DNA from: Proteromonas lacertae
Lineage: Eukaryota
NCBI GenBank assembly: GCA_002245135.1
Contig: NGBS01000591.1
Span: forward strand, 62,001-126,000
Direction: 5' to 3'
Length of the DNA stretch: 64,000 nucleotides
Within the stretch, counting starts at the first letter, position 1, and each line of letters starts with the position of its first letter. Shown here in pieces: positions 1,040 to 27,430 of this stretch. The notes beneath the pieces were generated by a model that made no database searches, was not told the DNA's origin, and saw only the letters and a list, made by a program, of their open reading frames with translations. The position numbers were made by a program, and so were the translations under genes.

Positions 1040-1552
1040 TTGTAGTTTGTTAGAAGCATAAAATTACTTTTCTTTAAGTAATTAGAAGCATCTACTATAA
1101 GAGTTAGTAGAAACCATCAACAACTTATACCAAAAATGCTAATACAAGAAGTCTTGCAGATTTTCAGTATTTAGAATTATGAACAAATATATCGAATTTA
1201 TTAATGAAAAAATGTATATATAAAACAAAGAATTAAAGAAAAAAAGTGTGTAATATTTTTCAACGTTGCTATAAATTATATAAACAATCTTATAAAAACT
1301 CTATAGTTAACATCACATCATTATGCTTAGCAATAAGAATGAAATATTTATATTCTATTACAAACTCATCAATTTGAATTATTTATTCATACTCCCTTTA
1401 TAATTTAACAGATAATCATTATTTAATTAATAATTATGGATAATAATTTTGGTTGAAATATTAATAAAAAGATCAATATGAATGATACAATTCTCTCCTA
1501 TTATCCATAATTACTCCCTTTTATTTCATTAAAATACGTAAATTAAAAATTT

Positions 1553-2356: not shown

Positions 2357-3477
2357 TAATATATAATCAACTAGGCTAATCCATAAAAATATTAAAATAG
2401 TTATAAAATTTCTATATAATTATTTTAAATCTTTATTAAGATATGTATTTTTTTTAGTTTCTTAAATATTATTGTAATTTTTAAAAGACCATATAATGTG
2501 TAGTATGTACACAAAATTTCATTGCATTTAATCTTTTCAGTATTTTATGGCGGATTATTTACATCAAATTCTCAAATTGTCATTCTTAATACATATTTGT
2601 AAATAACTCTCTTTGAGTAATAATAATATTTGTATATAAACAATTCCAAATTAATTTCTCTATACATTTAATATTCTTTACAATCTATACAAAATAACTG
2701 GATAGAGAATAAAAGAGAAAAAGAAATTATAAGTTTGATAAGAGCTTCAAAAATTTATTTTATGTTATTGGCTAAATAATTTAACAAAATCAATCAATTA
2801 TATGCTTCTTCATTATTTTTTGTTTTAAATGCTCCAGTTATAACACATCTATTTCCTAAACTATCTAAATATTCATATTCTTTAAGCTATCTCCATAATA
2901 ATTAAGTTCTTCTCTTTTTGGATTGTCATAAAGAGTCTGATTAAATACTCCCATTTCAATTCGATTTGAACTAAGTATGTAAACAGTATTTGGTTCTGAT
3001 AATATATTATCATTAATCACTTCTTTCACTCCTTCATATGATTCTATTTATCTTTGAATCACTTTATCATTGCTTATTGACATATTTGAACTAATATTAC
3101 ATGATTTTAATTCATCTTCATCATATATATGAACCATTAAATCATCAAATTTGGATATATTTAGATCTTACTTTGATTATATCAAATATGACAAATCTGA
3201 TATTTTATATTTATTTCTTTCATTAACTAGAGAAAGAGGTAATTATATAACATTGAAGAGGATAAATGGATTTCAACTTGAATATATTTATCAATATTGC
3301 TTCTGTTTTATATCAGAATCGAATTCTATGTTATATTTCTGCATTTAAAGAAAAATATGTAACGAATATATTTTTATTATTATAAAACTCAATATGCAGC
3401 ATATATATGTGCATTTTACTATTGATCTAGACACGCACTGATGACATACTAACAAATAAAAAATAGTAATGTTAATA

Positions 3478-5575
3478 TTAAAAGTGATATTTATTTTGAT
3501 GAGAAACTGATAATAATTCAATTGAAATATATCCACCTAACACCGCATATGAATATAATGGAGAAGGTAAATCTTTAACAAGTAAAACAGGAGATGAATC
3601 ATTATGACTTATCCACCATTCTCTTTTATTCATATCAACTATCACTTCATAAATTGAACCATCTCCATGATTTTTGAAATTTGGATTTTTATTAACAATT
3701 CTTCCAATATGACATCTTGAAGTAATATCTTGACTTTTACCATAAAATGCCCAATAATTACATGTTGTTGGTTGATTATGAATGTATTTACCAGAATATG
3801 TATTATCAGTTGATAATCCTAACATCATACCATCATAATAATTTCCATTTTGATGAAATTTATATTTGATATGATAAACTCCATTTTCCATTTTCTTATT
3901 TAAATAACAATGATTATGAAAACCATTTATATTTGTTATTGTTTTTCCATTATTTGAGATTGATATTCCATCACTTTTGTTTAATTTTGTGAATTTCACA
4001 TCAACAAATTCTAATGAAATTTTGAATTTCTTTTCATTTAGAATATTCTTACATATTATTTCATATTCTCTCTTTTCTATTTCTTTATTCACTTTTCCAT
4101 GAATTATTCCACTCTCTTTGTCTATCATTAAACCATCAACTAATGAAGGATTGATTGAAAATTCACATCGATTTCCATCAAATGATGGGATTATTGACAT
4201 TTCTTCATCTGATATAAATGAAAATTCTGATTGAGGATATGAAAATGATGTGATTTCTTTTGTTTTTAATTCACTCAATAATTCTTTATCTTTCATTATT
4301 ACAATCATTTCTTTTTCTTCTTTAAAACTCAATTTATTCTCTTTTATATATTCTATTAATAATTCTTTAGATTTGGAATTTAGATAATTATCCTCATTCA
4401 ATATTCTAAAAAGAATCTCTTTTCCACATACTTCTTCTATTATTGAAATATTCTTTCTATCATCAACAAACAAATATAAACATTTCATTGTTCGATTTCT
4501 TTTATTCTCATTATATTCTATACATAATCTATCCAATATAGTTCTCTTTTCGATATTTGAGATATATTCTATTTAAATATATTTTTGTATTTATACTTTC
4601 CATTTTCACATTCTTATATTTCATTATCATCAATGCTATTTCGGTCATTTTTATGTTATTCATTTCTAATATACACATTATTTCATCACTCAATTCTTCT
4701 TCTTTCATCTTTTCCAATATTCCTCTTTCTTCTTCATTAAATACTTCTTCTTCATTATCTTCATTGTATTTGTTGATTATTACTTTTTGAATTCTCTCAT
4801 CTTTTATTAAACATAATTCTATATGATTTTTACATTCATTTTTCTTTAATTCTATTTTCATTTCTTTCAACATTTCTTTATTCTCTTTTTCTATCTTTTT
4901 CTCTTTTATCTTTTCACCATCGATATCTTCTTCTATCAATTGTTTAAAATCATCTTCTATCTCTTCATTATCTTTCTCATTCTTTTGGAATTTATACCAT
5001 TTCAATAACCGATTTAATAACCAACTCTCACTTCGAATTATCACATCTTTCATATTTAATATCTCAATCAAATTATTCATTTCTAATCTCAACAAATATT
5101 CATTCTTATATAAATATTTATATCCTCGCTTTTCTATTTCCATATTTTTCAAGTCTTCTATTTCTCTCAAACATCCACCAAATATATTACATATATGAAT
5201 TAATTTCATTAATACTTCATCATCTATATAATTCTTCACAAATTCATAACAATCATTTATTATCTCTTTTTCACAATAACATAAACAAAACATCAACGCT
5301 TCACATACACTCTCTTTACAGATTATCAATTCACCACCACTGTAGTATTTCTCCATCTCATAATATCCAATTTCTTCGATTTCTTCATATAACTCTAAAA
5401 CTCCAACACACTCACGATCTAACAACAGTTTCTTTACAGTTTCATTTTTATTCACTAAAATTGACTTGATTGACATTATTCGGCTATCTCCAATCTTCAC
5501 TTCTATATCACCAAAACCACTTTCGACTAATTTTCGACATAATCTATCATAAAAATAAATACAAAATATACCCAT
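3478..5575 (-). CDS. BTB/BACK + Ig-like (He_PIG-type) + SPRY/B30.2-like protein, split into two ORFs by a frameshift or intron near 4530
   Basis: 5' ORF has FGDIEVKIGD...KSILV (BTB-like) and VIIRSESWLL (BACK-like). 3' ORF has FSINPSLVDGLMIDKESGIIHG (Ig-like) and a C-terminal beta-rich SPRY-like region. The two ORFs overlap by 8 nt. Confidence 0.6.
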
Positions 5576-6487
5576 CTTCTCTTATGCTTTTATTCACTTT
5601 TATTATCATCTTTATGTAAATATATAACAAAAATAACGAAATTTGATTTTTATCAAAATTTTGAATAACCTAAAAATTAAAAAGATGAAAAACATTCTAT
5701 ATATCAAATTTAAAGATTATATTTGTATATAAATTCCTTCATTATGCTCAATAAAATGGTAAAATGTGAATAATATAATGAAATGTGTTTACTTTTATAA
5801 AGTAGGTGTGTTAATATGTTTTTGGTATTTTATTAATATATATATGTGATTTTTTAATTATGTGAATATATAAAAGTATAATAATATTTGATAACTAGTG
5901 AAAATAACGCAAATGAGTGAAGTGAGTATTATTATTATTATACTCCAAACCTTATCTAAATCAGTTGCATTTTTCATCAAGCATGTCTATCATTTCTTTT
6001 TTTGTAAATGGAGGTATATACATCACCAATGGACATCTTTTGCTTTGAATATGTAAGTAATCCAAAATGTATTTCATCATGTCTTCTATTATAAAGTTAA
6101 TCTTATTTATACTTAATTCATATGCTATAACTTGCTTTAATGACATTCTTTTCACATATATATTAGTAAATGACTTATAATTCTTAACTGAATTGGAAAT
6201 ATATATTAATTCTTCTTCAGGTTTTAATATAAAATGTCCTAACTCATTACTCCATTTTGATTGAAACTGATATTTTAATATAATCTATTAAAGAGTTTTT
6301 ATGTTGATATGCATTTTTGTAACATTCTAATCTAACATATTTGCATAACTAATTCAAAAGAAGTCTATTAAATATATTTATTTTATTAAAAATGATTGAT
6401 TTCTATTCTTATGAATTATAAATATTTATCAAAGAGTAAATCATTATTTCATATCTCAAGACATTAATATAATTAACATGTGATTAT

Positions 6488-8160
6488 TTATTCATCCTGA
6501 AATTCAATTTCTTCTTCTCTTCCAATTGCTTTTCTAATTCTTCATCATATCCTTCAATCACTATCATTGCATCATCACTCATTCCGTAATATTCTAAATT
6601 CTTTTCCACATCATCAATCGGACTTAACATCATCTCATCTTTTACTTCATAGATAATGGTAAAGTTTTACTTATTCTTTGATCTCAGAAATTTCTTGAGA
6701 TCTCGATTTCTGAGTAGCAAATGGAATCATTTAAAAGTTGAGGATAATTCTTTACCACATTATTCTTAAATTCAGCTGAACAATTTACCCATTCATTGTA
6801 ATCTTTAAAGTTGTTTTCCTCCATTATATCAGTTATCCATTCTATGTACTCGTCTTATGTCACTTCCATTTAGTCTAGTTAATGTTGGAATTCGAGCGAT
6901 TATTTCTGGACGATATATCTCTGGACAAAAATCTTTTGTTAATGGAGTTTCTTTTAAACGTAAAGTTTTTTGTTGACAATTTACTTATATTACTGTTATG
7001 ACAATTTACTATTTCTACTGTTGTAAAAATTGGTAATTCTCTATATATATATTTTTTAATAATATACTCATTAATATCTCCTAATGGATTATATCCAAAT
7101 AATAATACTTCTAATTTTGGTAATTTGATTATTTCATTGAAATTATTCCATTTATCAATATCATTATGACATAAGTCAAATACTCGTAAATGACTAAATA
7201 CACCTTTAGGGATTCCAGAAGATAATTCTTTTATATGATTTCCTACTAAATATAATTCCATTAATTTTGGTAAATAAGGAGAAATTGTTACTATATTACA
7301 CCATAATACTTTGGTATATGATAATATTAAATCCTATTTATATTATTATAATTGTATAATGTTTATATTTATATATTAATACAGTTAAGTGATTAAAGGC
7401 ATTTTCCATTATTGATTTCATTGGTAATGTTTTTGTATTATTATTTTCATCACTTTCAGTTGTAGTTGGAGCTGGTGGAATATTTGATTCAGTTGTTATT
7501 GTTGTTGATGATGATGAAGTTGATAAGGCTGATTCAGTTAAAGCATGACCAATTTTAGATACATCATTCCATTCTATAAATATAAATAATTTAAATAATA
7601 CATACTAAAATCAAATTTTCATGAATATCTACTCTTTGAAGATTCTTAGCCATTACAGATAATACTTTTTCATCACCTATTTCACTCACACACTCATTGG
7701 GAGTTGAAGCTACCTAAATTTGATCTAATTTTTGATATTCTCTAGAGTATTACATTATTATCATTATTATAGAATAAATATATTATCTTTTTACCTCCTA
7801 CTAGTTTTGCCTCTACCGATTTACCCTTTTCAGTCTCTACAAACATATCTTCACCAACTCCACCCATTTCATCCTCTCATACTCTTGGGAGTATCTGTCT
7901 TGTAATGCCTGAATCAATGTCTTTCCAGTTTCTAACATCTTTGGTTTGACAAATGAGCCCATTTTCTCACCACATGTGAAATATCTTATCACATTTCCAT
8001 CAGAATCAGTAACTGAACCATCATACTTCCCTCTTCCTTCTAGATCTTACTCAACACCTATGAATGATTGGTCTTGATCCTTTGATATGCAAACAGGACC
8101 AATGTACCTTACAGTGCCTTTTATTTTGACATTTTCTTTATCTGCAACACGTTGTCCAAA
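6488..8160 (-). pseudogene. TBCE: Tubulin-folding cofactor E (CAP-Gly + LRR + UBL), disrupted
   Basis: Hand translation gives GQRVADKE..KGTVRYIGPV..FIGVE*DLEGRGKYDGSV (CAP-Gly, with TAA at the conserved Trp). LRRs lie in 6875-7261 and a UBL-like tail (NLEYYGMSDDAMIVIE) ends the gene. It has further in-frame stops and no clear start codon. Confidence 0.75.
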
Positions 8161-8403
8161 TAATAATGAATAATAAAGGGAAATGAGTACAGTTTGAAAC
8201 CCCTATTTTTTGGGGTTTTTGTATTCGAAACCCTATATGGTTTTTTTATTCGTTACTTTTTGTTTTCGAAAATATAGTCGTTATGCTTCAAATCTAATTT
8301 GCAAAAAATACTCAATTATGTTATTATGCATTGAAAACATCACCAATCATTTTTTTATTATGCATATACACACCCCCAACACATAGATAATTGATTGAGT
8401 TGA

Positions 8404-8790
8404 TTAGTCAAAAACATTAGATCTAATGATTAGTGATTCTTCTTCAGCTTCTTTAATGACTTCACTCAGTCTATTTCTGTAGAACTCTATTTTCGGTGGA
8501 TTGACTGATGAAGGGAAATTGTAGTATATATTTATACATTGACCTACTACATTTTGATGCTTGAAAATATCATCAACAAGGAATGTATGGAGCTTACTTC
8601 TGACTGCTGCTGTCTGGTCTCCATAAAATTTCATTACATCATGCCATTTGCAACCATTATCTCTAATGAACTCCAATTCTCTCTGAAATGTTAATCTTCC
8701 TTTTCTATTATTGTAAATGGCTGAATGATTGATCGAATGTCTCTTACTTTCTTAATTAGGTCTGGGACAACTATCATCTTAAAATCACTA
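8404..8790 (-). other. 3' fragment of an unknown intronless ORF abutting the virus-like gene
   Basis: 90-aa ORF with coding-like sequence continuing upstream across a frameshift to about 8790. No family recognised. Confidence 0.3.
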
Positions 8791-10269
8791 TAGTTTTTGC
8801 CATTGATGGCATAGCTTTTGATAATTCACTAATACCTTTAACTGCAGCAGCAGTTGTTGCATCACCTCCATTTGCAGCTGCAGCTACAGTTGCTGCTGTT
8901 TTTAATGTATCACCTACATTTTTTGCATCTATATTTCCAATATTAGAAAATTTGTAGAAGAATGGAACTAATTGAAATAAGTATCGAACATATGGATGAG
9001 TATTGAACATAAATGAAACACCAAAGTTATACAACAAGTCTACAGGTAACATTGATTTAACTTTTTCTGAATTACCATAATACAAGTCAGTGATAGCAGG
9101 TAATCTACCACCTGACAGCATACGAATTATTTCATAGTAGTCGAAAATGAAGTACCACATTACATACAAGAACCCTGATGTTGGTAGTTTAGATTTTTTC
9201 CATAACCAATAAGCCAAACATGTCATTACTATTGCACGAACATATATCATTGCATGATCTACTTCAAACATTTGAGGAGTAACTCCACCTACCAAATATG
9301 ACTTCATTGTATAGTATATTTGTGGAAATATCCTAAATACATTCTCTACACACAGGAACAAATTACCAGCAAAACCCATAAAATCAGATTCACGTAATGA
9401 ATCGAGTGCTTTTTGAAATTGTGAATTTTCAAATTGTGCCCATGAACTACAAGCAGTTTTCACTAAACCAATAGCTATTTCATATTTTTGTTTATTATCT
9501 GCATTCACCCACTCTTGAGGAAGTGAGTGACCTAACTTCTCTCTGTTATAATCAAAGTTAATGAAATCTCTACTATTCTGTGATGCTATTTCATTCAGTT
9601 CTCTATATTTATCTTCATTAATCCATGTATGCGGTTCTTTATCTATATCTATAGCACTATTCACCAGTTCTTGATTTTTTGGATCTAATGCCCATCTATA
9701 AAATTTTGATCTTTCTAATATCTCTTGATCATCCATATATCTTTGTGCCTTTTGATTATTCATTGCAATATATTCTTTTACTTTTTCAGCTCGATTCGGA
9801 TCAAAATTATATGGATCTGAATATTGATTGATCTTACTTACTCCATCAACTAATTCATTCTGCAAATACTCCTGCTGTAATAATAGTTTGTTATAATATT
9901 CTATTGCATCTTTATCATTACCTGTTAATTTATCCCAAGTTGAGGTCAACCAATCTTGTCTATAATTTTTATAGGCTGCTAATTGAGGATTCTTTTCTAT
10001 AATCTCTTGTAATGATTTATAATTTTGTAATTTAGGAAATTTTTGTAACAAAGGATATGTAACTCTATTCATTCCATTATCATATGCCTGAACATCTGCT
10101 TCTGTAACATATTCAGGCCAATTCAAAAGATAGCTTCTTGGATTAGATGTATCTAATTCTGCTAATGGATATGTTCCTCTTAAATGTCCTGTTTTATGTT
10201 CACGATCTAGCATATCATAAAAATTAATATGATAATTGTTAGGCAACATTGAAGCATAATTATCTGTAA
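8774..10269 (-). CDS. Virus-like structural/core polyprotein paralog A, 3' part
   Basis: 491-aa intronless ORF sharing identical blocks with the ORFs at 14972-16634 (LLLQQEYLQNEL, ASQNSRDFINFDYNREK, YYEIIRMLSGGRLPAITDLYYGNS). Homology extends upstream to about 10269. Confidence 0.55.
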
Positions 10270-10808
10270 TGTTGGTGGGATGAGAGTAAAGAGAAATTAA
10301 TTCAAAGATTAGGTATTTCTGATGTAGATGAGACTGTGCGCATTACACCTAATATGTTCCTTGAGTGTGTTAACAAGATTAAGGAGAAAAGAAACCCATC
10401 TTTTGAAAAAAACTCATCAATTATTAGAAAGTATTATTATGATGAATCATGAAGCTAATATATTACCTCCTCCTCCTCCTAATGATAATAGTAATAAAGA
10501 AATAGAAGAAATACAAGTCAAGCTTGAAAATGACAATGACAATGTCAATCTCACAGATTATGACTTATCTCCAATATCACCAAGATCCATTAAGGATGAA
10601 TATATTAATAATAACCAATGTCTTGTAAGTTAGTTTATTGATAATAAATACATTACTTTGATTAATTTTGTTTTCTTATATAAGATTCTCATAAACACAC
10701 ATGGACTTTGATGTAATAACTGTTTTGCTTTCAGTTCTCGTATTTGTATTGTATATGATAGCTTTGGCTCTTTTCAAATACTTAAAGGCACACAATTGTA
10801 TTCCAAAC

Positions 10809-11894
10809 CAGGGTTGTATAAATCGGTCATGACCGACGGAGAAAACCGATCGGTCGTAGGTCAATAAATAAATGTTGACCGACACCAGGCTGTAGTAACT
10901 ATTAGCTGACCTCCTCCTAAACATGTGATATTAATAATATTATCTAACTGTACATATTGAATTCAAGCTCTATATATCATTCTATAAAATACCCAATTAA
11001 CCGTCGGTCGATGTGCTTTTTTCTTTCTTCATAATTGAATCTAACCTTACCAATGAGTTATTCTATTGTGTTATATATGTAATATAAAGTATAGAATGAT
11101 TATAAAAATTTGAAAGAAAAAATGGCAAACTTTTAGCTTGACATTAATCATTTCTTAAAATTATCATAAATGTATCTAATATAATCTATCATTATATATT
11201 CTAGGAGTATAGTTTTACCAATTGGAGCGGCTCGTGAAGTTATTGCCTTAAAAGAGGCAAATATGCTTAAACATCTTAATTTTAACTTTTACAAAACCTT
11301 TTGGTATAATATGTTAAAGATAAAAAGCCTTGATAAATGCATTTGCAGTAAAAAGAAAGAGATTAATTATGCCAAATGAAGTACAAGAATATTTTCAATA
11401 TGATATTCATTACAGCACCTCTGAAACCATTGGAAATATCTGGCTATCATTAAAGTCCAAGTTTCCTAGGGTATACATACTTGCCAATAACAGTTTAAAC
11501 AGTCTAGCAACATCTTCAGAGCCAGAAAGAATATTTTCAGAGGCTGGACAAATAAGTAACTTATCCAAATCAAATTTATCATGTGATAGATTACAAATGA
11601 AACTGATGATTAGTAGAAATAAATAAGAACATAATTATATAAAATACCTAATTATTGTTGAGTATTAAATTGTAATTCTTTATAAAAAGTTAAAAATTAT
11701 TTAATTGAATTGAAAATATATGAATCAAGTATTAAAATATATTATAAGATAGTTTTTATGAAGGGAAAATTAGTATATAATGAATTAAAATAGATTTTAT
11801 AATATACGGCTTGTATGGCTTGACCGACCGACGGTCAAGGCAAAACCTATAGGTTTTGACCTATCTCCGTCGGTAACAGATAAATACAACCCTG
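10809..11894 (+). mobile_element. Non-autonomous hAT DNA transposon derivative
   Basis: TIR CAGGGTTGTAT at 10809 and ATACAACCCTG ending at 11894; GACCGAC/CGGTC subterminal repeats at both ends; internal hAT dimerisation-domain remnant. No matching 8-bp TSD. Confidence 0.8.
11330..11626 (+). pseudogene. hAT transposase C-terminal dimerisation domain fragment
   Basis: WLSLKSKFPRVYILANNSLNSLATSSEPERIFSEAGQI matches the W...FP.L...A...L..PATS...ER.FS.AG consensus. Confidence 0.85.
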
Positions 11895-11912
11895 TATAAT
11901 ACCACTATTACA

Positions 11913-12377
11913 ACCTAATTTCTTAGTAGCCAAGAGATGCCTCCGTGGGATACTCTCTAATTTTAGTTTATTTCTTCTGTGATGTTTCTTATGATTGAAA
12001 TGAACATGTTTTCTTCTACCTGAACCTGTCTTTGGATATCCATCTAAAGACATACCAAATAAACCATAATTTACTTTTGGCCATAAATGATATTCACTAC
12101 CCATACCATTAATTAAATTACACACATCTGATCGTGCTTCTGGAACACTACGACCACATTGATATTTGAAATAATGTAAGTAATCTACTAATTGATCTAT
12201 TGTTCCTCCATAGCTGGAATACTTTGATATAATATCTAATGGCAATCCTACATTTTTACATACATTTTCTAAATCTTGTTTTGTATTATTCATAACCATT
12301 TGCTTAACTGATTCATAATCATATTGATTAATCAAAAATGGTTGTATTTTTTCCATAATAGCATCTACATTATATCT

Positions 12378-12414
<37 letters not shown>

Positions 12415-13790
12415 ATTGGTTGTGTGTTATTTTGCAATGTTGGCTGGGCTGCTGCCGCCGGGGCGCAGCAGCACCTGCCATCATTCCGGCGTAGTTTGCA
12501 ACATTTGAACTTTGATTATTATAACCTGCACCAGTTGCAGGTATTGAAGTTGTAACATTAGAACTGGGGGCAGTTGTAGTACTATTAGTTGTATTATTAG
12601 AACTGGCCCCAGTTGTAACATTCGATGCTTGAATATTTGAAGTGGCCGGCGCACTCGTCGAATTTGTTGTTGCAGGAGTAGCACCAAATATACCTCTGAA
12701 CCAATTGTATATATTACTTAGTGATGTAGTAAAGAAACCCATTATACTATCTAACTTAAAATGAATCCATTGTGACATATCCATTGGAGGAACTTGTTTC
12801 CAACGATTATATACCAAACTGACAAAATTAGGAGTTAACATTGACACAAAAGATGCTGCATTAACCCATGCTGGGGATAAACCAAATATCCATTGCATAA
12901 CACCACTATATCCTATTCCTGCATTTACTAAATACTTTAATATTGCACCAACAGTATTATCAGGAAATAGTATTTCAAACACTTGTGAAATAGAACCTAA
13001 TGTCATAGTACATAAGCAGAACTTCACACCAAATTTCAACCAATTGTATGTTGTATTACCTGAGAAATATTTATCAATTTTTGAAATTAATGATTGTTTT
13101 TTTCTTTCTTCCATTGTTGCTATCTTTCTCTGATATTCTTCATTCCTTGCTTTCACTATTTCATTTTCTTGTTGTAATTTATACTCGTGATCTTTTTGTG
13201 TTGTACCAGCATTATTATTCCATCTTGGATTGGATTGATATGAATTTACATTGTACTGTGATCCCCATTGTTGTAATGGTTTTCCTTCAATTTGAGATAA
13301 AAATGGATTTTGCCATTGATATGTTAAATTCTCTGGTTGAGCATAATAATCTGAGTATGGCTTGTTATACTTACCTATGTTCCTATAATATCGTCCAAAC
13401 TGGTCTGTGATGCCTGACATATATAATTTGTATTTCATCTCATCAGTCATAAAATTGTTTTTTGTTGCGTTTATATTTGGATTAACAGGCTTTGATAATT
13501 CCTCTATATCATCATCCTCATCTCCTATAGTATCATAAAATTTATTGAAACTAGATTTAGGATCATAGACGTCTAATCCATATGTACCATTCATTGCCTT
13601 TGTCAACATTGGCTGTTGGGTTAGCCATGTGACTGAGATCTAGTTTTATTTTCTTGTTATCTTTCACTTTGTTATAGATGATCTTTTTCAATTTTCTCTT
13701 AAGTGCATTATGATACACAGAAGGATTCTCAAAATCAATTGCTTCTTCTTTTGGTGATGATTGTTGCTTATGCTTTCGTTTAACAACCAT
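11913..13790 (-). pseudogene. 5' part of virus-like polyprotein paralog A (three overlapping ORFs joined by frameshifts)
   Basis: ORFs 13563-13790, 12365-13609 and 11847-12437 overlap consecutively. The last reads KHVHFNHKKHHRRNKLKLESIPRRHLLATKKLG, homologous to KHVHF..HRKHNRKSKL*LKSIPHRHCLATNVLG upstream of ORF 14972. Also TM segments, a Thr/Ser/Asn-rich linker and poly-Q. Confidence 0.55.
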
Positions 13791-13868
13791 AAAATATATA
13801 AAACAATATAAAAAAAAAGAGAAACAATACTATTAGAAATATAGCCGTTATTGATATTATAGATGATA

Positions 13869-14195
13869 TTAACTCTTCTTTCGTTCTACAGATTGCCATC
13901 CATCATCATCAAAATCAGATTCAAATTCATCATCTTCTTGTTCTTGTTTTTGTTCTTGTTGTTGTTCTTCTTCTTCAAAATCAGATTTGAATTCATCATC
14001 ATCATCATCATCATCATTTTTAGGATTGTTTGCTTCTCTCCAATCCTCTCTTATTTTCTTTTGTTCTTCTGGTGTTATATATTGCATTATCTTATCAAGT
14101 TCATCTTTTGTTAATTCTGAAATATCATGTTTAATATCAGTAAATGGCTGTACTTTAATATCTGTTTCTGCTTTAGGAGTAATCAATTTATTCAA
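13869..14195 (-). CDS. Small acidic protein of the virus-like cassette
   Basis: 108-aa intronless ORF with a D/E/Q-rich tail and a repeated DDEF(K/E)SDF motif. Confidence 0.45.
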   Translation of the reverse strand: MNKLITPKAETDIKVQPFTDIKHDISELTKDELDKIMQYITPEEQKKIREDWREANNPKNDDDDDDDEFKSDFEEEEQQQEQKQEQEDDEFESDFDDDGWQSVERKKS

Positions 14196-14227
14196 CTTCT
14201 ACTATTATATATAAATTAACATGAATT

Positions 14228-14761
14228 TTATACCATTTGTTGCATTTGTGACATCTTGATTTGGTTAATTGGATTACTCATATATTCACCCATCTGCATC
14301 CTAGTCTTTGCACTTGCTTGAGCCATTTCATTGTAATTAGGTCTATTCATATTCACATACATGTTAGGACCAAACAAATGCTGATCATCAATCTCTCTTA
14401 AACTATTAGCAAGTGGTATAGCCATTGCATTACCTTCATGTAATGATGTGGATAACATAGAATCGATTGCATTCTGTCTCTCTAAAAATTTTTGCTCATC
14501 ATTCAATTTACGAATATCACTTTCATTAGGAAGAGTGTCTTTAGAATTCAACTTAGTAATCTCATCTTTTATTTCTTTTAAACGACTGTTTCTCATATCC
14601 ACTAAATCTTTTGCATTCTCTCTATAAAAATTATTATATAAACGCTGATAATATTTGTCATGTCCTTTATACCCTTCACCTCTCCGTATCTTCTTCCTTT
14701 TGCCTTTGCCTCTCATCCGAGCAAACACAGCAAGTAGTATTTTCTTATTCAGTTTTTTCAT
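14228..14761 (-). CDS. Basic-N-terminus protein, putative virion core/DNA-binding protein
   Basis: 177-aa intronless ORF with RMRGKGKRKKIRRGEGYKG (GxG motifs inside a basic tract). Confidence 0.5.
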   Translation of the reverse strand: MKKLNKKILLAVFARMRGKGKRKKIRRGEGYKGHDKYYQRLYNNFYRENAKDLVDMRNSRLKEIKDEITKLNSKDTLPNESDIRKLNDEQKFLERQNAIDSMLSTSLHEGNAMAIPLANSLREIDDQHLFGPNMYVNMNRPNYNEMAQASAKTRMQMGEYMSNPINQIKMSQMQQMV

Positions 14762-14809
14762 AATAACTTAATAGAAAATAAAAAGAAACAATTTAATTAT
14801 CATATATAA

Positions 14810-16759
14810 CTGAATTAGGTAATGATCCAAATAGTGTAATTGATGAACTACCTAAGAAAGGATTCTTTGGTTATGGAAGATAACATAAAAAACATGTTCA
14901 TTTTCAAAAAACATAGAAAACATAATAGGAAGAGTAAATTGTAATTAAAATCAATTCCACATAGGCATTGTTTGGCTACTAACGTTTTAGGAGGTGTTGT
15001 ACAACTAAATATGGGAACAACAGTAAAACTTAATGAACACTTTGTTGTTCCCAATCCAAGACAAAGTGTAGATGAAGGTAAAATACCAATCTATATACCA
15101 ACTCAATTACCAACTAATGTACAACGATATATACCAGAACAGCCTGTTGGATACAATTATAATTGGAATTATAATAAATTGTTTGGACCTGGTTTAAGTA
15201 GACAAGCTAGAAGAGAGATTCAATATCTAATCACAAATAACTATGCTCAACACTTATCTAATAATTGTCACATTGATTTATATGATATGAGAGATCCAGC
15301 ACATAAGAAAGGTAATTTAAGAGGTACTCCAGCATTAGCTCAATTAGATACATCAATGCCAAGAGAATATATTTTAAATTGGCCTAAAGGTGTTACAGAA
15401 CAAGATGATATGGCATATGATAATGGAGTGAATAAAATAACAGATGATTTATATAAAAGATTTCCTCAATTACATGGTTATAAGTCGTTACAGCAAGCAA
15501 TTGAAATGAATCCTGAACTACAAGCATACAAAAACTATAAAAATAATATATTATCTAAAGGATGGGACTATATTATGGGAAATAATAAGGAAATGAATGA
15601 ATATTATAATAAGCTATTACTGCAACAAGAGTACTTGCAAAATGAATTAGCAGATGGTGTTAGTAAAATACATACTTATTCTGATCCATCTAATCTCGAT
15701 GCTGAAAAAGTTAAAGAATATATTGCATTAAATAGTCAAAAAATGGGTAGAGTAATGAATGATGATCAAATAAAAGACCAATCACTCTTTTTTAAATTTG
15801 CTACTGAGAATCCAGACATTATGTCAAAAGTTCCAGATATAGGTCAAGGTGAATGTTCACCAATAAATGAAGATTATTATAGAATGCTTAATGAAGTAGC
15901 TTCACAAAATAGTAGAGATTTCATTAATTTTGATTATAATAGAGAGAAATTTGCTCATGAACTTCCTGAAGATTGGATGGCAGCTTCTAATCCAGAAAAA
16001 GTATCGATAGCATTTGGTTTGCTGAAAACAGCATGTTCATCATGGGCAAAATTTGAAAATTCACAATTTCAGAAGGTATCGGACTCTTTGAAGGAAACTG
16101 ATTAACAGGTTTTGTAAGTAACTTATTGTTGTGTGTAGAAAATTTGTTTAGGATATTTCCTCAGATATATTATACATTCAAAGATTATTTAGTTGGTGGA
16201 GTGACTCTTCAAATGTTTGAAGTAGATCATGTAATGAAATATGTACGTACAATATTACTTTCATGTTTGGCTTTTGGTTATGGAAGAAGGCAAAGTTGCC
16301 AATGACAGCCTTTCTGTATGTAATGTGGTACTTCGTGTATGATTATTACGAAATTATTCGTATGTTGTCAGGTGGTCGTTTACCTGCTATCACTGACTTA
16401 TATTATGGTAATTCAGATAAAGAGAAGGCTATATTACCAAAAGCATTACAAAACTCTTGGTTACCGATAGATTTAATTTATAATTTTGGTGCATCATTTT
16501 TGTTCAATAAACATCCCTATATCAGACATTTGTTTCAAGCAGTGCCATTTTTGTTTAGGTTTACTGGTATGTCACCTCCTAATTTAAGTAATGATAGTTC
16601 AGGATCGATATTGAAAGCTGCTTCAGAAGTGTAGCAACAGTGATAACAGCACTTACTGAAGCCAGAAGGACATAAACATAAGAATAGAATGCAATTTCCA
16701 ACTACGTTCCAAAACAACAACAATCAATTCCAAGTTCATTCACTAATTTTGGTAGAGCA
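14810..16759 (+). pseudogene. Virus-like polyprotein paralog B (frameshifted, 5'-truncated)
   Basis: ORFs 14972-16105 and 16263-16634 plus the intervening frame (TGFVSNLLLCVENLFRIFPQIYYTFKDYLVGGVT) align collinearly with the 491-aa paralog A. There are stops and frameshifts at about 14880-14945, 16105, 16262 and 16630. Confidence 0.6.
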
Positions 16760-17248
16760 ATGAGTAACTTAGATCAATTAAAACAAGTTAATCAAGCTTT
16801 AAATTGGTTTCAAAGAGGTAATGGAAATAATAAAAAAGTAAAGAAATTAATTTCACGTAGGAAGATTTTATATAACAATATCACTTCAGATGCCTTATCG
16901 AACTTTGATATAGAGTTAATTGTGAAAAATGAGTTCAATAATTTTCACGGAAAGTTCATGGGAGTGTTCTGCTGGGACGAGCTTGTACTTCCTACACCCA
17001 AAAAGAAGAATCAATGGGGAATCATAATCAATACACTCACCACACAAGCTAGCCCTGATTCTATAGGTCATTGGGTGGCCTTAGTAGTTGACAATATCAA
17101 GAAGCAATTCCTGTACTATGATTCATTTGGTGAAGATCCTCAACACTTAGAAAAATTCAAAAAAAGTTTGAAAAAATTAAAGAAGTATCATAATGAAAAG
17201 TATGAACTTAAAATCAATGGAGTACAGAACCAAAATTCAAATACTACC
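16760..17248 (+). pseudogene. Adenain/Polinton-virophage-type cysteine protease (clan CE), 5' part, interrupted by the Ginger insertion
   Basis: Motifs FMGVF, IIINT, GHWVALVVD, YYDSFG and VQNQNSNTT. The catalytic Cys lies beyond the insertion. Confidence 0.85.
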
Positions 17249-17351
17249 TGTTGTTCCCCGTTGAGTACAACTCCCCGTTGAGCGATTAGAAACTTTAGAA
17301 ACAAACTAATTATATAATGTTATTACTCATAATGAGTTATGAAGGGATATA
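17249..17351 (+). repeat. Left TIR of the Ginger element
   Basis: TGTTGTTCCCCGTTGAGTACAACTCCCCGTTGAGCGAT... is the reverse complement of 27323-27425 and contains two direct copies of TCCCCGTTGAG. Confidence 0.95.
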
Positions 17352-18383
17352 ATGTTACCTTGTCATATAAGCTACTTTTGTGAGTAAAAAAATAGTGTCA
17401 TAATATTGAGAAAAAACTACATAAATGAGTGTTAGAATTAATTTATATTTCATATTTTATGTTTTTATTTTAATATGATGTCTAAATAAAAAGTGACAAA
17501 ATTTAAGGATTTAAGAATTATACCCCTTCTGACGTCAGTGTTTTCACACAAACTTTCTCAAACTACATTCATTTCATTTTTTTGATTTTAAAACTATTAA
17601 AATAGTTAATATTATTGTAATTTAAATAATTAGCATAAATGGATTTTTATCATACAAAATTTGCTGTTTTTATATCACCAATATAGATATAAACAAAAAA
17701 TGTGTAATTGTGGAAATATATTTATAGAAAAAGTGTCTTTTTATTTACTATAATATATATAATGAGTGTATAATGAGTATAGTTAATATATTGTATCAGA
17801 TCTTAAAATCACTTGCAAATCAGAATACACTCTTTTGTTTTCTTAATACAAATTAAATAATGTTTATTATTTTATATAAAATACAGCTAATTAACCAAAT
17901 CACACTTCTCGCATTACATTCTTATACATTCAACTCTTCTGGACTTATGAAACATATACCATTTATTTTTATATGCTTTTCTTTTCTAAGTGTTTATTAA
18001 TATGTTTTTCATACAACTTAAAAAACTATTGTAAAACAAAGAAAATAACACAAACCTCAAGCCTATGATAATATTTGAATTTTGATATCAAAAATGTAAG
18101 TGTTATATATATATATATTATTATTATTATATTATTATATATTATATATTATTTATCAATTTATTTATATATATATATATTTTGCGTTAAAGGTAGATAT
18201 AGATGAATATAGTCATTGGTAAGAAGAATGAATATTATGTATAGTTAGTAAAATATTTTTCTCAATTTGGTAGTCAATCATTATATTCATTTATCGATAA
18301 TTATGATAAAGAAATTTTTAATGCTCATTTGGAAACTGTTTTGGAATTGTATGTATATATTTTGTTATAATTGTTGTTTATAG

Positions 18384-19500
18384 ATAAAAGGTGATAATGC
18401 GAATAGAATGAAGATGAACATAAAGTTGAATCCTCTAATACTAAAGAAGATGAGATAAGTCAATTGAAAGAAGAGTTGAATGAAATGAAGAAAGAAAAGA
18501 ACGAATTAGAAAGTCAATTGAAAGAGATGAAAGAAGAATCTAAACCATATACTGATGAAATTGAATCATCAAATAGTTAAAAAAAGAATAAAGAATAAAT
18601 AGAGAAAGAGTTGAATGAATTGAAAAATAAAATCAAAGATAATAATAAGATAGAAAATGATGTAATTTACAAAAGTGAAAAACTTGGAATAAGTGAAATA
18701 GAAGAAATAGAAAATGAATTGAAAGAAGAATGAGATAAATCTAATCAATAGAATGTAGAATTACAGAAGAACAAAGATGAATTAGAGAAAGAAATAACTC
18801 AATTAAAAGAACATCAATCTAAATCTCAGAATGAATTAGAGAATGAATTAAATGGATTGAAAGAACAACTAGATAAATCCAAAGAAGAGAAAGAAGAAAT
18901 GAAAAAGAACAAAAAAGATTTAGAGAATGAGTTGAAGAAAATGAATGATGAAGTAATAAAATGTTAAACCATTTTAAGATAATTCAAGTATTTATTTTAT
19001 TCCCATAATCAGTACTTCAGTTTAGTTATATCAACATGATGACATGATAATGAAGAAATGATTGAATAAGTGGGTAATGATCCTGAAGTGTTAGCTTTTA
19101 TTGGAACTTCTACTAATGAAGAAAGATAAGCAATTCATCCATATTTGTCAGAATATAATAAATAATTATTCTCATTTTATGTTGTAGAAGTTTAAAAAAG
19201 TTTACAAGAATGTAATACAGTTTGGAAGAATGCCTCATCATTATATGATTAAAGTATTTAATTATCACTATATTAATAGAAGATTATAATATAACATTGA
19301 ATAATGAGAATGGTATAATAAGTGGATTTCCAACTAATGAATTGAATAATATGTTGAGAATAAAAATAACAGGTAATAATGATAAAGAAGGAATAGAAAT
19401 AGAAAATTCAGTTATTAAACACATTCAGTTGCAAACCTATCTCACATATTATGAAACAAAATATATATTTTGTAAGTGAAGAAGATAAGAAAAAATATAG
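18384..19500 (+). pseudogene. Degenerate host-like gene fragment (K/E-rich coiled coil + Ig-like remnant) carried inside the Ginger element
   Basis: Long E/K-rich coding-like tract with several in-frame stops. LNNENGIISGFPT resembles the IDKESGIIHGKVN Ig-like motif in the host gene at 3478-4536. Confidence 0.5.
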
Positions 19501-19786
19501 AATAGAATAATATGAAGGCAAATGAAATTGACAGATAAAACAAAAGGAGTGTTTGTAAGAATAAATGTGAATAAGTGTATTTAGATAATGTATTACTTTA
19601 GGTGATTTTACATTAGTTGGTATGAATTTATTGTTTTTTGAGGTTTTATTTCAGCAATACATAATTAGAATTCAATGATTTATATAAAAAATAACAGTAA
19701 AAACATTAGCTATATATATTTATTACTATAACTATATATATACATATAATTCTCATTTATTTCATAATATATATCATAATATATAG

Positions 19787-22700
19787 GTTTTCTGAAGTAT
19801 TACACCTTGATCAAGTACTTGAGGACGATCACAAACCTCTTTATTATCAAGCACTTGATAAGTTGTTTAAAGAAAAAGCCTCTTCCAGCGGCGATAAAAA
19901 GAGAAAAGAACACAGAAGAAGTCATTCTGTAGGTATCGAAAAGAGAAAGAAAGGAAACAAAAGAAGCCGTTCTACTAGTAGTAATGAAGTAGAAGAAGAT
20001 AATTATCGTTGTAGAAGCTTTACCAAAAAGAAATACGATGATTATGTAAAAGATATAAACTTCTATTCCAACAAAGGTTATTCTTACGATGAAGAGACAA
20101 AGCAGTTATTGTTTAAAGGAAAGAAGGTTATTAAAATTGAAGAATCGTTTGATGTACTAAAAGAATTACACGAAGGTAATGGTCACATTACAATTGAACC
20201 TTTGTATTACTTGGTAAATGAAAAGAAGTACTATGGTATTACCAGAGAAATGGTAGATGTATTCGTAAAAACATGTTCTGGATGTAAAGAATTGAAGAAA
20301 GTTCATGTTGAACAACCGTTAAAACCGATACTATCAAGCTATCCACGCGAAAGAGTGTTATGCGATCTAATTAATATGAGTAAAATCAATGAGAAATTTA
20401 CAGTTACTGAAGAAGAACAGTTTAATTACATTCTTACAGTGATTGATCATTACAGTAATTTTACAATTATATATCCATTAAAGAGAAAAACAAAAGAAGA
20501 AACAGTGAAGAATATGCGAAATTATATCAGAATTTTTGGTGCTCCTCAGATTCTTCAAATGGATAATGGTACTGAATTCAAGAATGATTTGATGAGAAGT
20601 TTATGCAATGAATATGGAATTGAAGAAGTTCATAGTGCACCATATAGGCCTCAAACGAATGGAAAGGTAGAAAGGTACAATCGAGTTGTGAAAAACACTT
20701 TAAAAGGATTTATGATGTCGAATAAAGGCATTTATTGGACTGAATTTGTTGATAAAATTATTGAAACAATAAACAATCACAAGTGCAGAAGAACACATTC
20801 TAAGCCTAGATCTTTATTCTATATGGATATTGAACAATTAAAGAAGGAAAACCCAAAGTTATTTATAAAAGAAAATGGCGAAGAAGATGGTGATAATGGT
20901 GGTAATAATGGTACAGTTGATGGTGATGATGATGGTAATGTTTGTCATGATGAATTATGTGATTGTTCTAAAGAAGATGATAAAGAATATTTTAATGATG
21001 ATGAATACGATGAAGTTGAAGTAATAGAAATAGCAAAAGAAAAATATGATGAGAAGAAAAACATAGAAAACATCAGAAAAGATATTTTGAAAAATGAACA
21101 TAAACTCCAACAAGTAAAAGATTACATTAATAAAAGAAGAGATGAATACAATGATAAAATGCATGATGAATCAGAAAAAAAGCTGAAGAAAACTATTATC
21201 AATCCTAAACATGGTGATATAATTGTCTATACCGACAAGAAGAAGAATTACGCAGATAACAACAAGAAAGGAATAATTAAAGAAGATAAAAAAACTAAAG
21301 ATTTATATGGATTGTATACTATTAATATTTAAATTAATATAATTATATAGGATTGATGACCAAGCAATTAAACTTACTACATCTTCAGCATTTACAATAA
21401 TACCTGTTACAAAAGAAGTAAATGAAAAAATGAAAAGAAAAGCTGATGAATTATATGTATTATAAAGTTTATTATTATTATATAATAGATGAATCCTCAA
21501 TCAAAGAAAAGACTATTAGATCCTGATTATAAGAAACAATTACATGAAATAGTTCATAGGCCAAAGTTAAATGCAGTCTATGGAACTATAGCTATAGGAG
21601 CAATTGATATTAAATTAGATTCATCATCACCATTAGAAGAAAGTCGATTAGAATATGTTAAATCTGTTAGAAATAAAATTGGAACAATGCAGTTGGATAT
21701 TATAGATGTAAGATTTATATTGGATTTATATACTTATGGAAGTCAATTTGATCTATTATTAGAGAATGATGAATGTTTAGGTACTTATATAACAACTAAA
21801 AATAGGGATATTTATATAATTAAGTCGGATAGTAGGTATTATACAACGTATCAGACATTAGTAAAAGGTATAAAGTATATTCATGTCATTGACTCATCTA
21901 ATAAAGGTAATTATAAAACAGATTTAGAGAAACTCAGAATTAAAGTTGGTAAAGATAAAGATCAATTCAGATTATTAGTTGATAAGGTGGAAACAAATCA
22001 TCCAGAAGCTACAGATATAGTTTCATTGGTAGTATTTATGATGAAATGTAAGGGTGCAAATATTATTAGTGTTGACACAAGGTTATTAGGAGATTTGTTT
22101 AAAGAATATATAGATACATTAATCAATACCAATTCATGTTTATTGAACTTGGCATTTTTTAAATCATATTGTTCAAAAATATCAACATCATCAATTACTT
22201 ATGAAGAAGAACAAGAAAGCCATGGTTTAAGCTTTGTAAAAAAGATAAGAAAAGTATTTCAGTATGATGATAAGATTGTTTGTTACAAAGGTAAAGAAAG
22301 GGCTGGAAACATCAGTAAATGTGAAAAATTAATATGTGATATGAATACTAATTATGAGTTAAATACAGACGAGTTCACACTTCTACTACATTTCATCAAC
22401 AATGACAATAGTGATGTTATAGATCCATTGGTACTATATCAGAGTGAAGCTCCCAATCACCCCATTCATCATAGTGGTACTTATTTCATTCCAGTATGCA
22501 GAGAACATCATTGGACAGTATGGGAGGTGGAATATGTAAAGAATGAATCAATTACATGTTATATCCATGATTCAATGAAAGAATATACTCATGACTCTCA
22601 AGATAGAAGGTATTTATACTCTGATATTACATCATTATTTGACACAGAAAACATCGATATCTCTTATAAATGCAGTAAAATAATACCATTAGATTATGAG

Positions 22701-22934
22701 TTAAAGAACTTAAAACAAAAAGGTGATAAGAGCTGCGGTTATTTTGCATTGTTCTTTTTAGGTATAAGAAAGATGAATATGGAAATTGAAGATGTGGAAC
22801 ATATAGAATCTTTCAATATATCGTACTTTATAATGGATTTAAAAAGGGTTTTAGCATCATTGGATAATAATGATAAAGCAAAGTTATATTGGTATAAAAA
22901 GCATAAACCATCATTCTATAAATTCAAATGCTAA
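19787..22934 (+). CDS. Ginger transposase: HHCC zinc finger + rve DDE integrase fused by splicing to an unknown domain and a Ulp1/C48-like protease
   Basis: LHEGNGH...CSGC; catalytic LCD, QMDNGTEF and NGKVERYN. GT-AG introns at 21314-21350 and 21457-21488 join ORF 19863 in frame to ORF 21489, which has HHWTVW, YIHDSM and KQKGDKSCGYFAL. The first exon was not located; an acceptor AG lies at 19785-19786. Confidence 0.88.
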
Positions 22935-23044
22935 CATCTATATTAATTAATTATAATAATGTTTTATTGTAACTTGTTTGTTTTACAAATTTAACTTTTA
23001 AATAACAAATAATTAAAAGTATATAAATTCATATTCACTATTCC

Positions 23045-26000
23045 TATTAAGATTAAAATATGTGTATGTAATACACATACTATAATACATCTATCTATAT
23101 ATTAATATCAAAAATTACTCAAAATTTGACTGAATCTAGTTTCAGATTCAGTCAAATTTTAAGTAATTTTTGATATTAATATATATTTATATACAATTAA
23201 TAGTATCTAACATATACAGAGAGTATCAAGTTAATACTGTGTGTCTGTACTCAACAGGGAGAAAAGAGTAAATTTCATCCCATTGAGTACAGACAAACAG
23301 TATTAAGCTTATAGTATGTGTATGTAATACACATACTATAATACATCTATCTATATATTAATATCAAAAATTACTCAAAATTTGACTGAATCTAGTTTCA
23401 GATTCAGTCAAATTTTAAGTAATTTTTGATATTAATATATATTTATATACAATTAATAGTATCTAACATATACAGAGAGTATCAAGTTAATACTGTGTGT
23501 CTGTACTCAACAGGGAGAAAAGAGTAAATTTCATCCCATTGAGTACAGACAAACAGTATTAAGCTTATAATATGTGTATGTAATACACATACTATAATAC
23601 ATCTATCTATATATTAATATCAAAAATTACTCAAAATTTGACTGAATCTAGTTTCAGATTCAGTCAAATTTTAAGTAATTTTTGATATTAATATATATTT
23701 ATATACAATTAATAGTATCTAACATATACAGAGAGTATCAAGTTAATACTGTGTGTCTGTACTCAACAGGGAGAAAAGAGTAAATTTCATCCCATTGAGT
23801 ACAGACAAACAGTATTAAGCTTATAATATGTGTATGTAATACACATACTATAATACATCTATCTATATATTAATATCAAAAATTACTCAAAATTTGACTG
23901 AATCTAGTTTCAGATTCAGTCAAATTTTAAGTAATTTTTGATATTAATATATATTTATATACAATTAATAGTATCTAACATATACAGAGAGTATCAAGTT
24001 AATACTGTGTGTCTGTACTCAACAGGGAGAAAAGAGTAAATTTCATCCCATTGAGTACAGACAAACAGTATTAAGCTTATAATATGTGTATGTAATACAC
24101 ATACTATAATACATCTATCTATATATTAATATCAAAAATTACTCAAAATTTGACTGAATCTAGTTTCAGATTCAGTCAAATTTTAAGTAATTTTTGATAT
24201 TAATATATATTTATATACAATTAATAGTATCTAACATATACAGAGAGTATCAAGTTAATACTGTGTGTCTGTACTCAACAGGGAGAAAAGAGTAAATTTC
24301 ATCCCATTGAGTACAGACAAACAGTATTAAGCTTATAGTATGTGTATGTAATACACATACTATAATACATCTATCTATATATTAATATCAAAAATTACTC
24401 AAAATTTGACTGAATCTAGTTTCAGATTCAGTCAAATTTTAAGTAATTTTTGATATTAATATATATTTATATACAATTAATAGTATCTAACATATACAGA
24501 GAGTATCAAGTTAATACTGTGTGTCTGTACTCAACAGGGAGAAAAGAGTAAATTTCATCCCATTGAGTACAGACAAACAGTATTAAGCTTATAATATGTG
24601 TATGTAATACACATACTATAATACATCTATCTATATATTAATATCAAAAATTACTCAAAATTTGACTGAATCTAGTTTCAGATTCAGTCAAATTTTAAGT
24701 AATTTTTGATATTAATATATATTTATATACAATTAATAGTATCTAACATATACAGAGAGTATCAAGTTAATACTGTGTGTCTGTACTCAACAGGGAGAAA
24801 AGAGTAAATTTCATCCCATTGAGTACAGACAAACAGTATTAAGCTTATAGTATGTGTATGTAATACACATACTATAATACATCTATCTATATATTAATAT
24901 CAAAAATTACTCAAAATTTGACTGAATCTAGTTTCAGATTCAGTCAAATTTTAAGTAATTTTTGATATTAATATATATTTATATACAATTAATAGTATCT
25001 AACATATACAGAGAGTATCAAGTTAATACTGTGTGTCTGTACTCAACAGGGAGAAAAGAGTAAATTTCATCCCATTGAGTACAGACAAACAGTATTAAGC
25101 TTATAATATGTGTATGTAATACACATACTATAATACATCTATCTATATATTAATATCAAAAATTACTCAAAATTTGACTGAATCTAGTTTCAGATTCAGT
25201 CAAATTTTAAGTAATTTTTGATATTAATATATATTTATATACAATTAATAGTATCTAACATATACAGAGAGTATCAAGTTAATACTGTGTGTCTGTACTC
25301 AACAGGGAGAAAAGAGTAAATTTCATCCCATTGAGTACAGACAAACAGTATTAAGCTTATAGTATGTGTATGTAATACACATACTATAATACATCTATCT
25401 ATATATTAATATCAAAAATTACTCAAAATTTGACTGAATCTAGTTTCAGATTCAGTCAAATTTTAAGTAATTTTTGATATTAATATATATTTATATACAA
25501 TTAATAGTATCTAACATATACAGAGAGTATCAAGTTAATACTGTGTGTCTGTACTCAACAGGGAGAAAAGAGTAAATTTCATCCCATTGAGTACAGACAA
25601 ACAGTATTAAGCTTATAATATGTGTATGTAATACACATACTATAATACATCTATCTATATATTAATATCAAAAATTACTCAAAATTTGACTGAATCTAGT
25701 TTCAGATTCAGTCAAATTTTAAGTAATTTTTGATATTAATATATATTTATATACAATTAATAGTATCTAACATATACAGAGAGTATCAAGTTAATACTGT
25801 GTGTCTGTACTCAACAGGGAGAAAAGAGTAAATTTCATCCCATTGAGTACAGACAAACAGTATTAAGCTTATAATATGTGTATGTAATACACATACTATA
25901 ATACATCTATCTATATATTAATATCAAAAATTACTCAAAATTTGACTGAATCTAGTTTCAGATTCAGTCAAATTTTAAGTAATTTTTGATATTAATATAT

Positions 26001-27042: not shown

Positions 27043-27322
27043 ATTAAGTTTAATATTTTTAATTACGAAAAAATTTAAAAAGATGTACAAAAATATAAAC
27101 AATTACATATGAAATTAACGATAAAAAAATAATTAAGGGGGTAAAAAAATTCAGGATTTACAACACATTTTTTTGTTTATCTCATCATCCAATTGAAAAT
27201 TTTTGAAAATAATTTATATTATTAATAAGCATAATATGTACATATATAATATGAAATAAAAGTGAACTAGTTGGTGTAATAGATGATATCGCGACATGTT
27301 GTATATGTTATATGACCACCTA

Positions 27323-27425: not shown

Positions 27426-27430
27426 CTACC

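Follow-up and report, generated by a model that had tools for sequence, protein, structure and literature searches.

In Polinton-like viruses and virophages, the protease that matures the virion is normally a small separate gene, and the inner core proteins are mostly unidentified. The proteases of mavirus, adenovirus and African swine fever virus (ASFV) cleave at GG↓X or GX↓G (PMC6048507; PMC8728581; here and below, cited sources stand for their accessible parts), and in ASFV the protease pS273R cleaves pp220 and pp62 at Gly-Gly-Xaa into core-shell proteins (PMC8728581). The tables of PMC10120064 list endogenous viruses of the midsize class in Proteromonas, with a count of 285, the corresponding cell being empty in 10 of 10 Blastocystis rows; section 3.4 of PMC8502044 describes midsize endogenous viruses in Blastocystis datasets whose virion proteins are unrecognisable. 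Here we analyze positions 8404-17248 of a 64,000-nucleotide stretch of a Proteromonas lacertae contig (NGBS01000591.1; the whole stretch is called the window), which an earlier reading of the letters alone, the original prediction, described as a decayed virus-like cassette. Judged by sequence comparison, most open reading frames (ORFs) of this region are pieces of two broken, head-to-head copies of one polyprotein gene that ends in a protease. These copies probably come from the part of an integrated Polinton-like virus (midsize, with linear double-stranded DNA) that encoded the virion core, with a protease predicted to cleave its own precursor. That a protist carries a remnant of an endogenous virus is nothing unusual; what is new is the fused, apparently self-processing architecture with intact relatives.

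Self-BLAST pairs 8958-10270 with 15230-16552 as inverted sequences with 72% identity along 1,351 nt. The ratio of nonsynonymous to synonymous substitutions (dN/dS) between the two copies is about 0.26 over 444 codons by a rough count, so the copies diverged as working genes. The inverted match was also considered as a terminal repeat and rejected, as it is internal coding sequence under purifying selection. The minus-strand ORFs were assigned to the same gene because the basic segment 12012-11913 matches 14889-14992 (score 77 vs. a best of 46 in 200 shuffles). The intact relative P0005 (1,354 aa) is colinear with 13829-11895 plus 10270-8945 on the minus strand (copy 1) and with 14900-17248 plus 27431-27565 on the plus strand (copy 2). 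Among the 424 stop-to-stop segments of the region, the minus-strand pieces match P0005 residues 12-87, 87-434, 479-536 and 645-1066, in order, and the plus-strand pieces match residues 504-1086, 1130-1311 and 1306-1354, again in order. Copy 1 retains the N-terminal part and lacks the protease; copy 2 lacks the N-terminal part and retains the protease. The paralogs and the protease, first listed as separate genes, are by this mapping parts of one gene type, and the several undescribed genes of the original prediction give way to two copies of one protease-fused polyprotein gene and three small ORFs without relatives.

In its 5′ part, copy 1 encodes a basic N-terminus, an Asn/Gln/Tyr-rich region, a hydrophobic region, a variable region and a GxG motif with a basic peptide. 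Its 3′ part encodes a predicted all-helical domain, a hydrophobic segment with an invariant GG, and an Ala-rich tail that is unlike the linker of the relatives and is followed by no protease. The stretch 10271-10808 within copy 1 aligns to the equivalent segment of copy 2 with a score of 31, against a shuffle mean of 31. Copy 2 encodes, in order, a decayed basic peptide, a GG motif, the helical domain, the hydrophobic segment, a linker, a GxG motif and most of the protease (His, Asp and Gln motifs), with frame breaks near 14900-14945, 16102, 16275 and 16630-16690. That the region contains paralogs was correctly foreseen; their transmembrane character is weak in the window pieces, where the best 19-residue hydropathy window reaches 1.31-1.55. 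Hydropathy peaks in the relatives are 2.24 (P0004) and 1.83 (P0005), and P0006 has none above 1.3.

Transposon insertions, truncations and in-frame stops bear out the decay noted earlier, and the small frameshifts could partly be assembly errors. If all of these frameshifts were such errors, the copies would be less decayed than they appear, which is a real possibility and on balance an unlikely one: two breaks sit, by eye, at runs of four identical bases, and apparent stops in protist endogenous viruses disappeared on polishing (PMC10120064), but no single-base error accounts for the two transposon insertions, the missing segment of copy 1, the 5′ truncation of copy 2 or the in-frame stops at 14880-14945. 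This alternative bears only on the degree of decay.

Intact relatives establish that the polyprotein is a single ORF. A full HMMER search with the minus-strand (copy 1) domain found two of 1,835,955,588 representatives, P0002 (48% identity) and P0003 (39%); a cluster mate of the latter, P0004, is a single ORF of 1,068 aa that ends in a protease. Searching with P0004 gave three of 7,997 scored candidates, including P0005 (from a cluster of 4) and P0006 (935 aa). P0004, P0005 and P0007 (1,354 aa) are all single ORFs with a terminal Pfam Peptidase_C48 domain. P0006 has a different N-terminal part and shares with the others only the terminal protease (54-56%) and the GxG-basic-GG layout described below. 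All close relatives are unnamed proteins from assemblies of sequencing runs.

Other searches added little. A word-based search with the copy 1 domain returned none of 7,999 candidates and missed P0003, later caught by full HMMER; an Atlas search with the same domain peaked at an uninformative 0.75. Scans of viral contigs gave no close relative and at most two weak protease matches, scans of metagenome contigs gave one relative only, and neither prokaryote genomes (no relative), phage records (no match) nor PHROGs (none below E 0.02) contributed any. One prokaryote match, L004, was dropped as a coiled-coil chance match that has no score with the core profile; we take its ORF to be RNase-Y-like. 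Outside the protease, the polyprotein has no sequence match to any PDB or Pfam entry and no named relative. In literature readable without subscription we found no description of the family, and there is none in the accessible parts of PMC12129017, PMC12721341 and PMC11161782; the sequence files of PMC8502044 may contain these proteins under another name. The AlphaFold modelling and fold search that the original prediction proposed were carried out and yielded no informative fold: the model of the copy 1 domain is all-helical with a predicted local distance difference test (pLDDT) of 44, a second model has a pLDDT of 41, both are poor and helical outside the protease, and TM-scores were at most 0.10. 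We therefore describe the non-protease part as predicted helical and claim nothing further of its structure.

The protease itself is more informative. Its His, Asp, Gln and Cys catalytic motifs are conserved in order, the Cys motif of the window copy lying beyond a Ginger-type transposon. The window protease scores 25.5 bits with Pfam Peptidase_C48 (cut-off 20.7), which places it in clan CE. The adenain type originally proposed holds in this broader sense and not in the strict one, as scores with Peptidase_C5 (PF00770) are below the cut-off of 21.3 bits for the window protease (15.3), P0001 (17.1) and P0005 (19.7). When a five-sequence protease profile was run against 177,635 PDB sequences, ASFV pS273R was the best match (E 3.8e-8; next 3.7e-6), followed by a modest margin by Chlamydia deubiquitinases and SENP1 (E 4e-6 to 2e-5). 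A profile of four polyprotein proteases gave 79 bits for a protease on contig L001, 30 for L002, 22 for L003, and 5 for the Ulp1-like ORF of the transposon. L001 holds the closest protease with DNA context, in a compact protease-gene-gene array; its two ORFs after the protease (830-2456) are likened to penton and capsid genes by eye only. The contig looks Polinton-like, with unverified capsid genes. L002 looks like a giant-virus fragment from its record name and gene layout. L003 (983-15631) is a near-complete virophage contig with Sputnik-type major capsid protein, V18/19 and A32 ATPase genes (Pfam). It also carries a 1,918-aa ORF without a Pfam match that is polymerase-like by eye. On these scores the protease groups with virion-maturation proteases and is of the viral Ulp1 type, fused and not stand-alone. 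Viral hallmark genes beside homologues, a check proposed at the outset, were seen only for these distant proteases.

Short glycine motifs recur along the polyprotein. In P0005, 39 residues separate a GxG from the next GG; 21 of them are Lys/Arg/His and one is acidic. A second GxG-basic motif precedes the protease. The GxG-basic motif is also present in P0006 (at both sites, despite the unrelated N-terminal part), in copy 1, in the copy 2 protease and in the basic ORF of the region. Defined as GxG followed by at least three Lys/Arg in 8 residues, it occurs 7 times in five of six sequences (3,928 residues); shuffled sequences would give 0.9, and eight host ORFs with 4,288 residues contain 2. All five core sequences keep one GG unchanged within the hydrophobic segment, in an alignment with 57 invariant columns among 233 ungapped. 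Since GxG and GG motifs lie around a short basic peptide and before the protease, they suggest self-processing by the fused protease. On this prediction, the GG and GxG motifs are the sites at which the protease would cut the precursor of which it is part, and cleavage during particle maturation would set it free. The released peptide of 20-40 residues, rich in Lys/Arg/His, would condense viral DNA, and the helical hydrophobic products might form a lining of the capsid or act upon membranes as the virus enters. These roles are proposed by analogy with asfuviruses, adenoviruses and virophages, whose processed core proteins behave in this way.

The region also differs from its surroundings in composition. 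Stop-free stretches of at least 100 codons cover 82% of 8404-17248, vs. 52% of 1-8200 and 69% of 29400-64000. AT-rich GTA..AG intron-like segments, mostly 24-39 nt, occur at 0.2-0.4/kb, compared with 2.5-3.0/kb in host genes; the window as a whole is AT-rich and intron-dense. By intron size and base composition the host would resemble a Blastocystis-type protist, in which case the locus has a bearing on the DNA viruses that infect common gut eukaryotes. GC content is 30.8%, vs. 23.4% and 27.1% in the two flanks. The roughly 9 kb of intronless ORFs described by the original prediction are thus real as ORFs and poor in introns, with one exception, a 35-nt candidate intron at 14199-14233. A Pfam scan of 13 ORFs found three above the curated cut-off: the Peptidase_C48 protease, a hAT dimerization domain (11324-11623) and an rve integrase (19710-21329).

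A viral origin is supported because the protease groups with virion-maturation proteases, because the relatives with context lie on viral contigs, and because no named cellular homolog was found; in these respects the original prediction, which also recognized no host gene among the ORFs, stands. The Polinton-like or virophage-like class that it offered is still unproven: like the earlier reading, ours found no major capsid, packaging ATPase or pPolB in the window, although this was a weak test. Capsid and penton genes were absent from the Pfam, PHROGs and tblastn results for the window. The locus is a partial remnant, and neither pPolB or another replicase nor an integrase of the element's own was seen. 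The rve integrase was considered as a virus integrase and rejected, having its own repeats and duplication. After integrating, the element would have shed its genes for capsid and replication at this site, and the hAT and Ginger-type transposons would have struck it afterwards.

Several observations weigh against this reading. Searches of the window for capsid, penton, ATPase and polymerase gave no tblastn match with eight distant baits (one translated from the wrong strand; a weak test), and no Walker A motif occurs in any frame of 8200-17260 or 27426-29400. The cassette has no terminal repeats: when 8151-8800 was compared with 27431-29700 in inverted orientation, the longest likeness was 24 nt, no better than chance, and self-BLAST gave none. 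Copy 1 is without a protease, and readable DNA context comes from distant proteases only. On L001, the two ORFs after the protease have no significant Pfam, PHROG or PDB match, and the capsid identity is an unverified, by-eye likeness of the second to the N-terminus of a Proteromonas capsid protein (PMC10120064, Table S3). SENP1 and the Chlamydia deubiquitinases are only 6-9 bits below pS273R. As for processing, the rule for the GxG-basic motif finds none in P0004 and was itself set after the sequences had been seen, and sites related by descent do not count as independent; a structural turn may account for the invariant GG. Cellular Ulp1 enzymes likewise cut after GG. In its predicted working the polyprotein is like a viral core polyprotein with a maturation protease; that it belongs to a Polinton-like virus is no more than probable.

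It is also conceivable that the gene comes from a mobile element without a capsid, or from a host family of viral origin, and makes a membrane-associated polyprotein whose terminal domain is a deubiquitinase or deSUMOylase or processes it for a cellular role. The missing capsid gene, the purifying selection on two paralogous copies, the candidate host-type intron in a neighboring gene and the Ulp1-like domains borne by transposons of this genome would all suit such an element, as would the fact that every close relative comes from a sequencing-run assembly, with no close match in the viral contig collection. We nevertheless judge it improbable: a gene of 1,300 codons is intronless in an intron-dense genome and its GC lies above that of the flanks, the protease profile scores viral proteases above the transposon Ulp1 ORF, and the GxG-basic-GG layout recurs even in P0006. 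Very doubtful, finally, is a piece of some large nucleocytovirus akin to asfuviruses or egoviruses, with a pp220/pp62 counterpart fused to its protease: pS273R as the best PDB match, the GG motifs, the higher score of L002 than of the virophage protease on L003 and the presence of pp220/pp62 homologs in egoviruses, which inhabit gut protists (10.1101/2024.03.23.586382), speak for it, whereas the non-protease part matches nothing in PDB or Pfam, the closest protease with context (L001) sits in a compact array as in small viruses, no other giant-virus gene was seen in the window, and the accessible part of the same egovirus study reports no gene flux between egoviruses and Blastocystis.

Table 1. 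Features of the broken polyprotein copies and of the elements within and beside them (window coordinates).
Feature	Positions	Strand	Basis or remarks
ORF of 115 codons, kind unassigned	8407-8751	-	Downstream of copy 1
Copy 1, 3′ part	8777-10270	-	41% to P0005 645-1066, E 8e-91
Unrelated sequence, ~540 nt	10271-10808		Replaces the segment that copy 2 keeps at 14992-15230
hAT remnant inside copy 1	10809-11894	+	PF05699, E 2.9e-7 at 11324-11623; 11-bp matching ends
Copy 1, 5′ part; frame breaks near 13600 and 12465 (three frames)	11895-13790	-	61% to P0005 12-87, 37% to 87-434, 42% to 479-536
Basic ORF (14231-14761, GxG-basic motif) and acidic ORF (13872-14198)	13872-14761	-	
Copy 2, 5′-truncated	14889-17248	+	Colinear with P0005 489-1311 and P0004 298-1025
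Ginger-type DNA transposon, ~10.2 kb	17249-27425	+	Inserted in the protease domain of copy 2
Last 45 protease codons of copy 2, catalytic Cys motif and stop codon	27431-27568	+	67% to P0001 C-terminus; 69% to P0005 1306-1354, E 1e-21

Two transposons interrupt the copies (Table 1). The right boundary of the region as first drawn, 17248, proved to be the edge of the Ginger-type transposon: the protease breaks off there just before the catalytic Cys and resumes at 27431-27568, and the two pieces abut end to end on the intact 193-aa protein P0001 (60% and 67%; one match among 38 candidates). Inverted repeats of about 120 bp (17249-17370 and 27308-27425; 89% identical), ending in TGT..ACA and flanked on either side by a 5-bp direct duplication, bound the transposon, which contains the rve integrase, a Ulp1-like ORF (21489-22931) and 16 copies of a 256-bp repeat. 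The TGT..ACA ends, inverted repeats within 40-270 bp and an rve integrase with an H2C2 finger agree with the definition of Ginger elements, taken here from PMC2836005; the 4-bp CCGG/CCGT target duplication of Ginger1 was not found, the 5-bp duplication being of other sequence. Like Ginger1 and Ginger2/Tdd, this element (17249-27425 only) combines TGT ends, inverted repeats of about 120 bp and an H2C2 and rve integrase with a downstream Ulp1-like domain and introns (PMC2836005). Unlike known Ginger elements, it joins a 5-bp duplication, as in TDD-4/5, to a Ginger1-like Ulp1 domain, and measures 10.2 kb with a 4-kb tandem array. Candidate introns lie at 21314 and 21457, between the integrase and Ulp1-like ORFs, and decayed coiled-coil-like coding sequence at about 18400-19500. 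The 16 units of the array (23045-27184) are 99% alike and each is largely self-complementary (75% over 248 nt); the array may have arisen by amplification of a hairpin element. At 28394-29114 lie another, diverged transposon end (67% like 27023-27425) and, after it, a 327-bp palindrome that is 80% self-complementary. Capture of host sequence by the transposon is suggested by a 133-nt direct match (75%) between its interior (17861-17993) and a kinase-like host ORF (57992-58124).

The hAT remnant was not mentioned in the original prediction. An 8-bp target duplication is expected of hAT transposons; the remnant has none and its flanks differ, which agrees with a deletion beside the element. Transposons have been found nested within endogenous virophages (PMC8547959).

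The small acidic ORF (isoelectric point 4.2) and the basic ORF (9.8) are present as claimed. If the candidate intron is removed, the two join in frame without a stop, and they possibly form one spliced gene of 285 codons. Neither has a match at cut-off in Pfam or PHROGs, nor any in the window or the fetched relatives, the sets to which the scan was limited. The 115-codon ORF at 8407-8751 has no Pfam or PHROG match at cut-off and none to the fetched relatives; it was considered as a continuation of copy 1 and rejected, showing no likeness to the linker or protease of the relatives. To the right of the protease end, on the minus strand at 27600-27879, are two short ORF pieces, one with a sub-threshold DUF3850 match (E 5e-4), which may be further genes of the element. 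To the left, the minus-strand gene at 5961-8202, which we take from its motifs to be tubulin-folding-cofactor-E-like, carries a stop in its reading frame near 8047, and its 91-nt insert (7723-7813) recurs at 29368-29458 (93%); this gene may be a pseudogene beside the insertion site.

With the protease as the tail of a large precursor that carries conserved GG/GxG motifs, the polyprotein names candidate substrates for a protease of this class, and its family provides search baits for endogenous viruses that capsid-based screens may miss. A bolder conjecture, which we offer only tentatively and hold to be unlikely, is that a DNA virus lineage of gut or anaerobic protists, so far undescribed, encodes its whole inner-virion kit (DNA-condensing peptide, membrane-acting helical proteins and maturation protease) as a single polyprotein that processes itself and is 900-1,350 residues long. 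The part outside the protease would be a new fold family, and the particle might lack a recognizable jelly-roll capsid.

Among known systems, the locus resembles ASFV pS273R with pp220/pp62, and the egovirus homologs, in pairing a clan-CE protease with a large precursor bearing GG motifs. In ASFV, however, the protease is a separate gene, whereas here it is the C-terminal domain of the precursor, and no homology to pp220/pp62 was found, there being no PDB or Pfam match outside the protease. With Polintons, Polinton-like and MELD viruses it shares a compact, intron-poor insert of shifted GC in a protist genome, an Ulp1-type protease, unrecognizable virion proteins and nested transposons; unlike them, it has yielded no pPolB, element integrase, capsid genes, ATPase or terminal repeats. 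The Blastocystis MELD virus (PMC8502044) is likened to it by description only, and identity with its proteins is possible. "Cahain" and "Hexain" (PMC11071296), likewise compared by description only, are fusions of structural protein and protease in different virus groups, for which the accessible text describes neither a basic peptide nor a multi-part layout. The locus is also similar to the maturation protease system of mavirus and Sputnik, which has GG↓X and GX↓G motifs and yields basic products (PMC6048507), the L003 protease scoring 22 bits; yet the virophage enzyme stands alone and acts on the tail of a jelly-roll capsid protein, whereas the domain partnered with the protease in the window is predicted to be all-helical.

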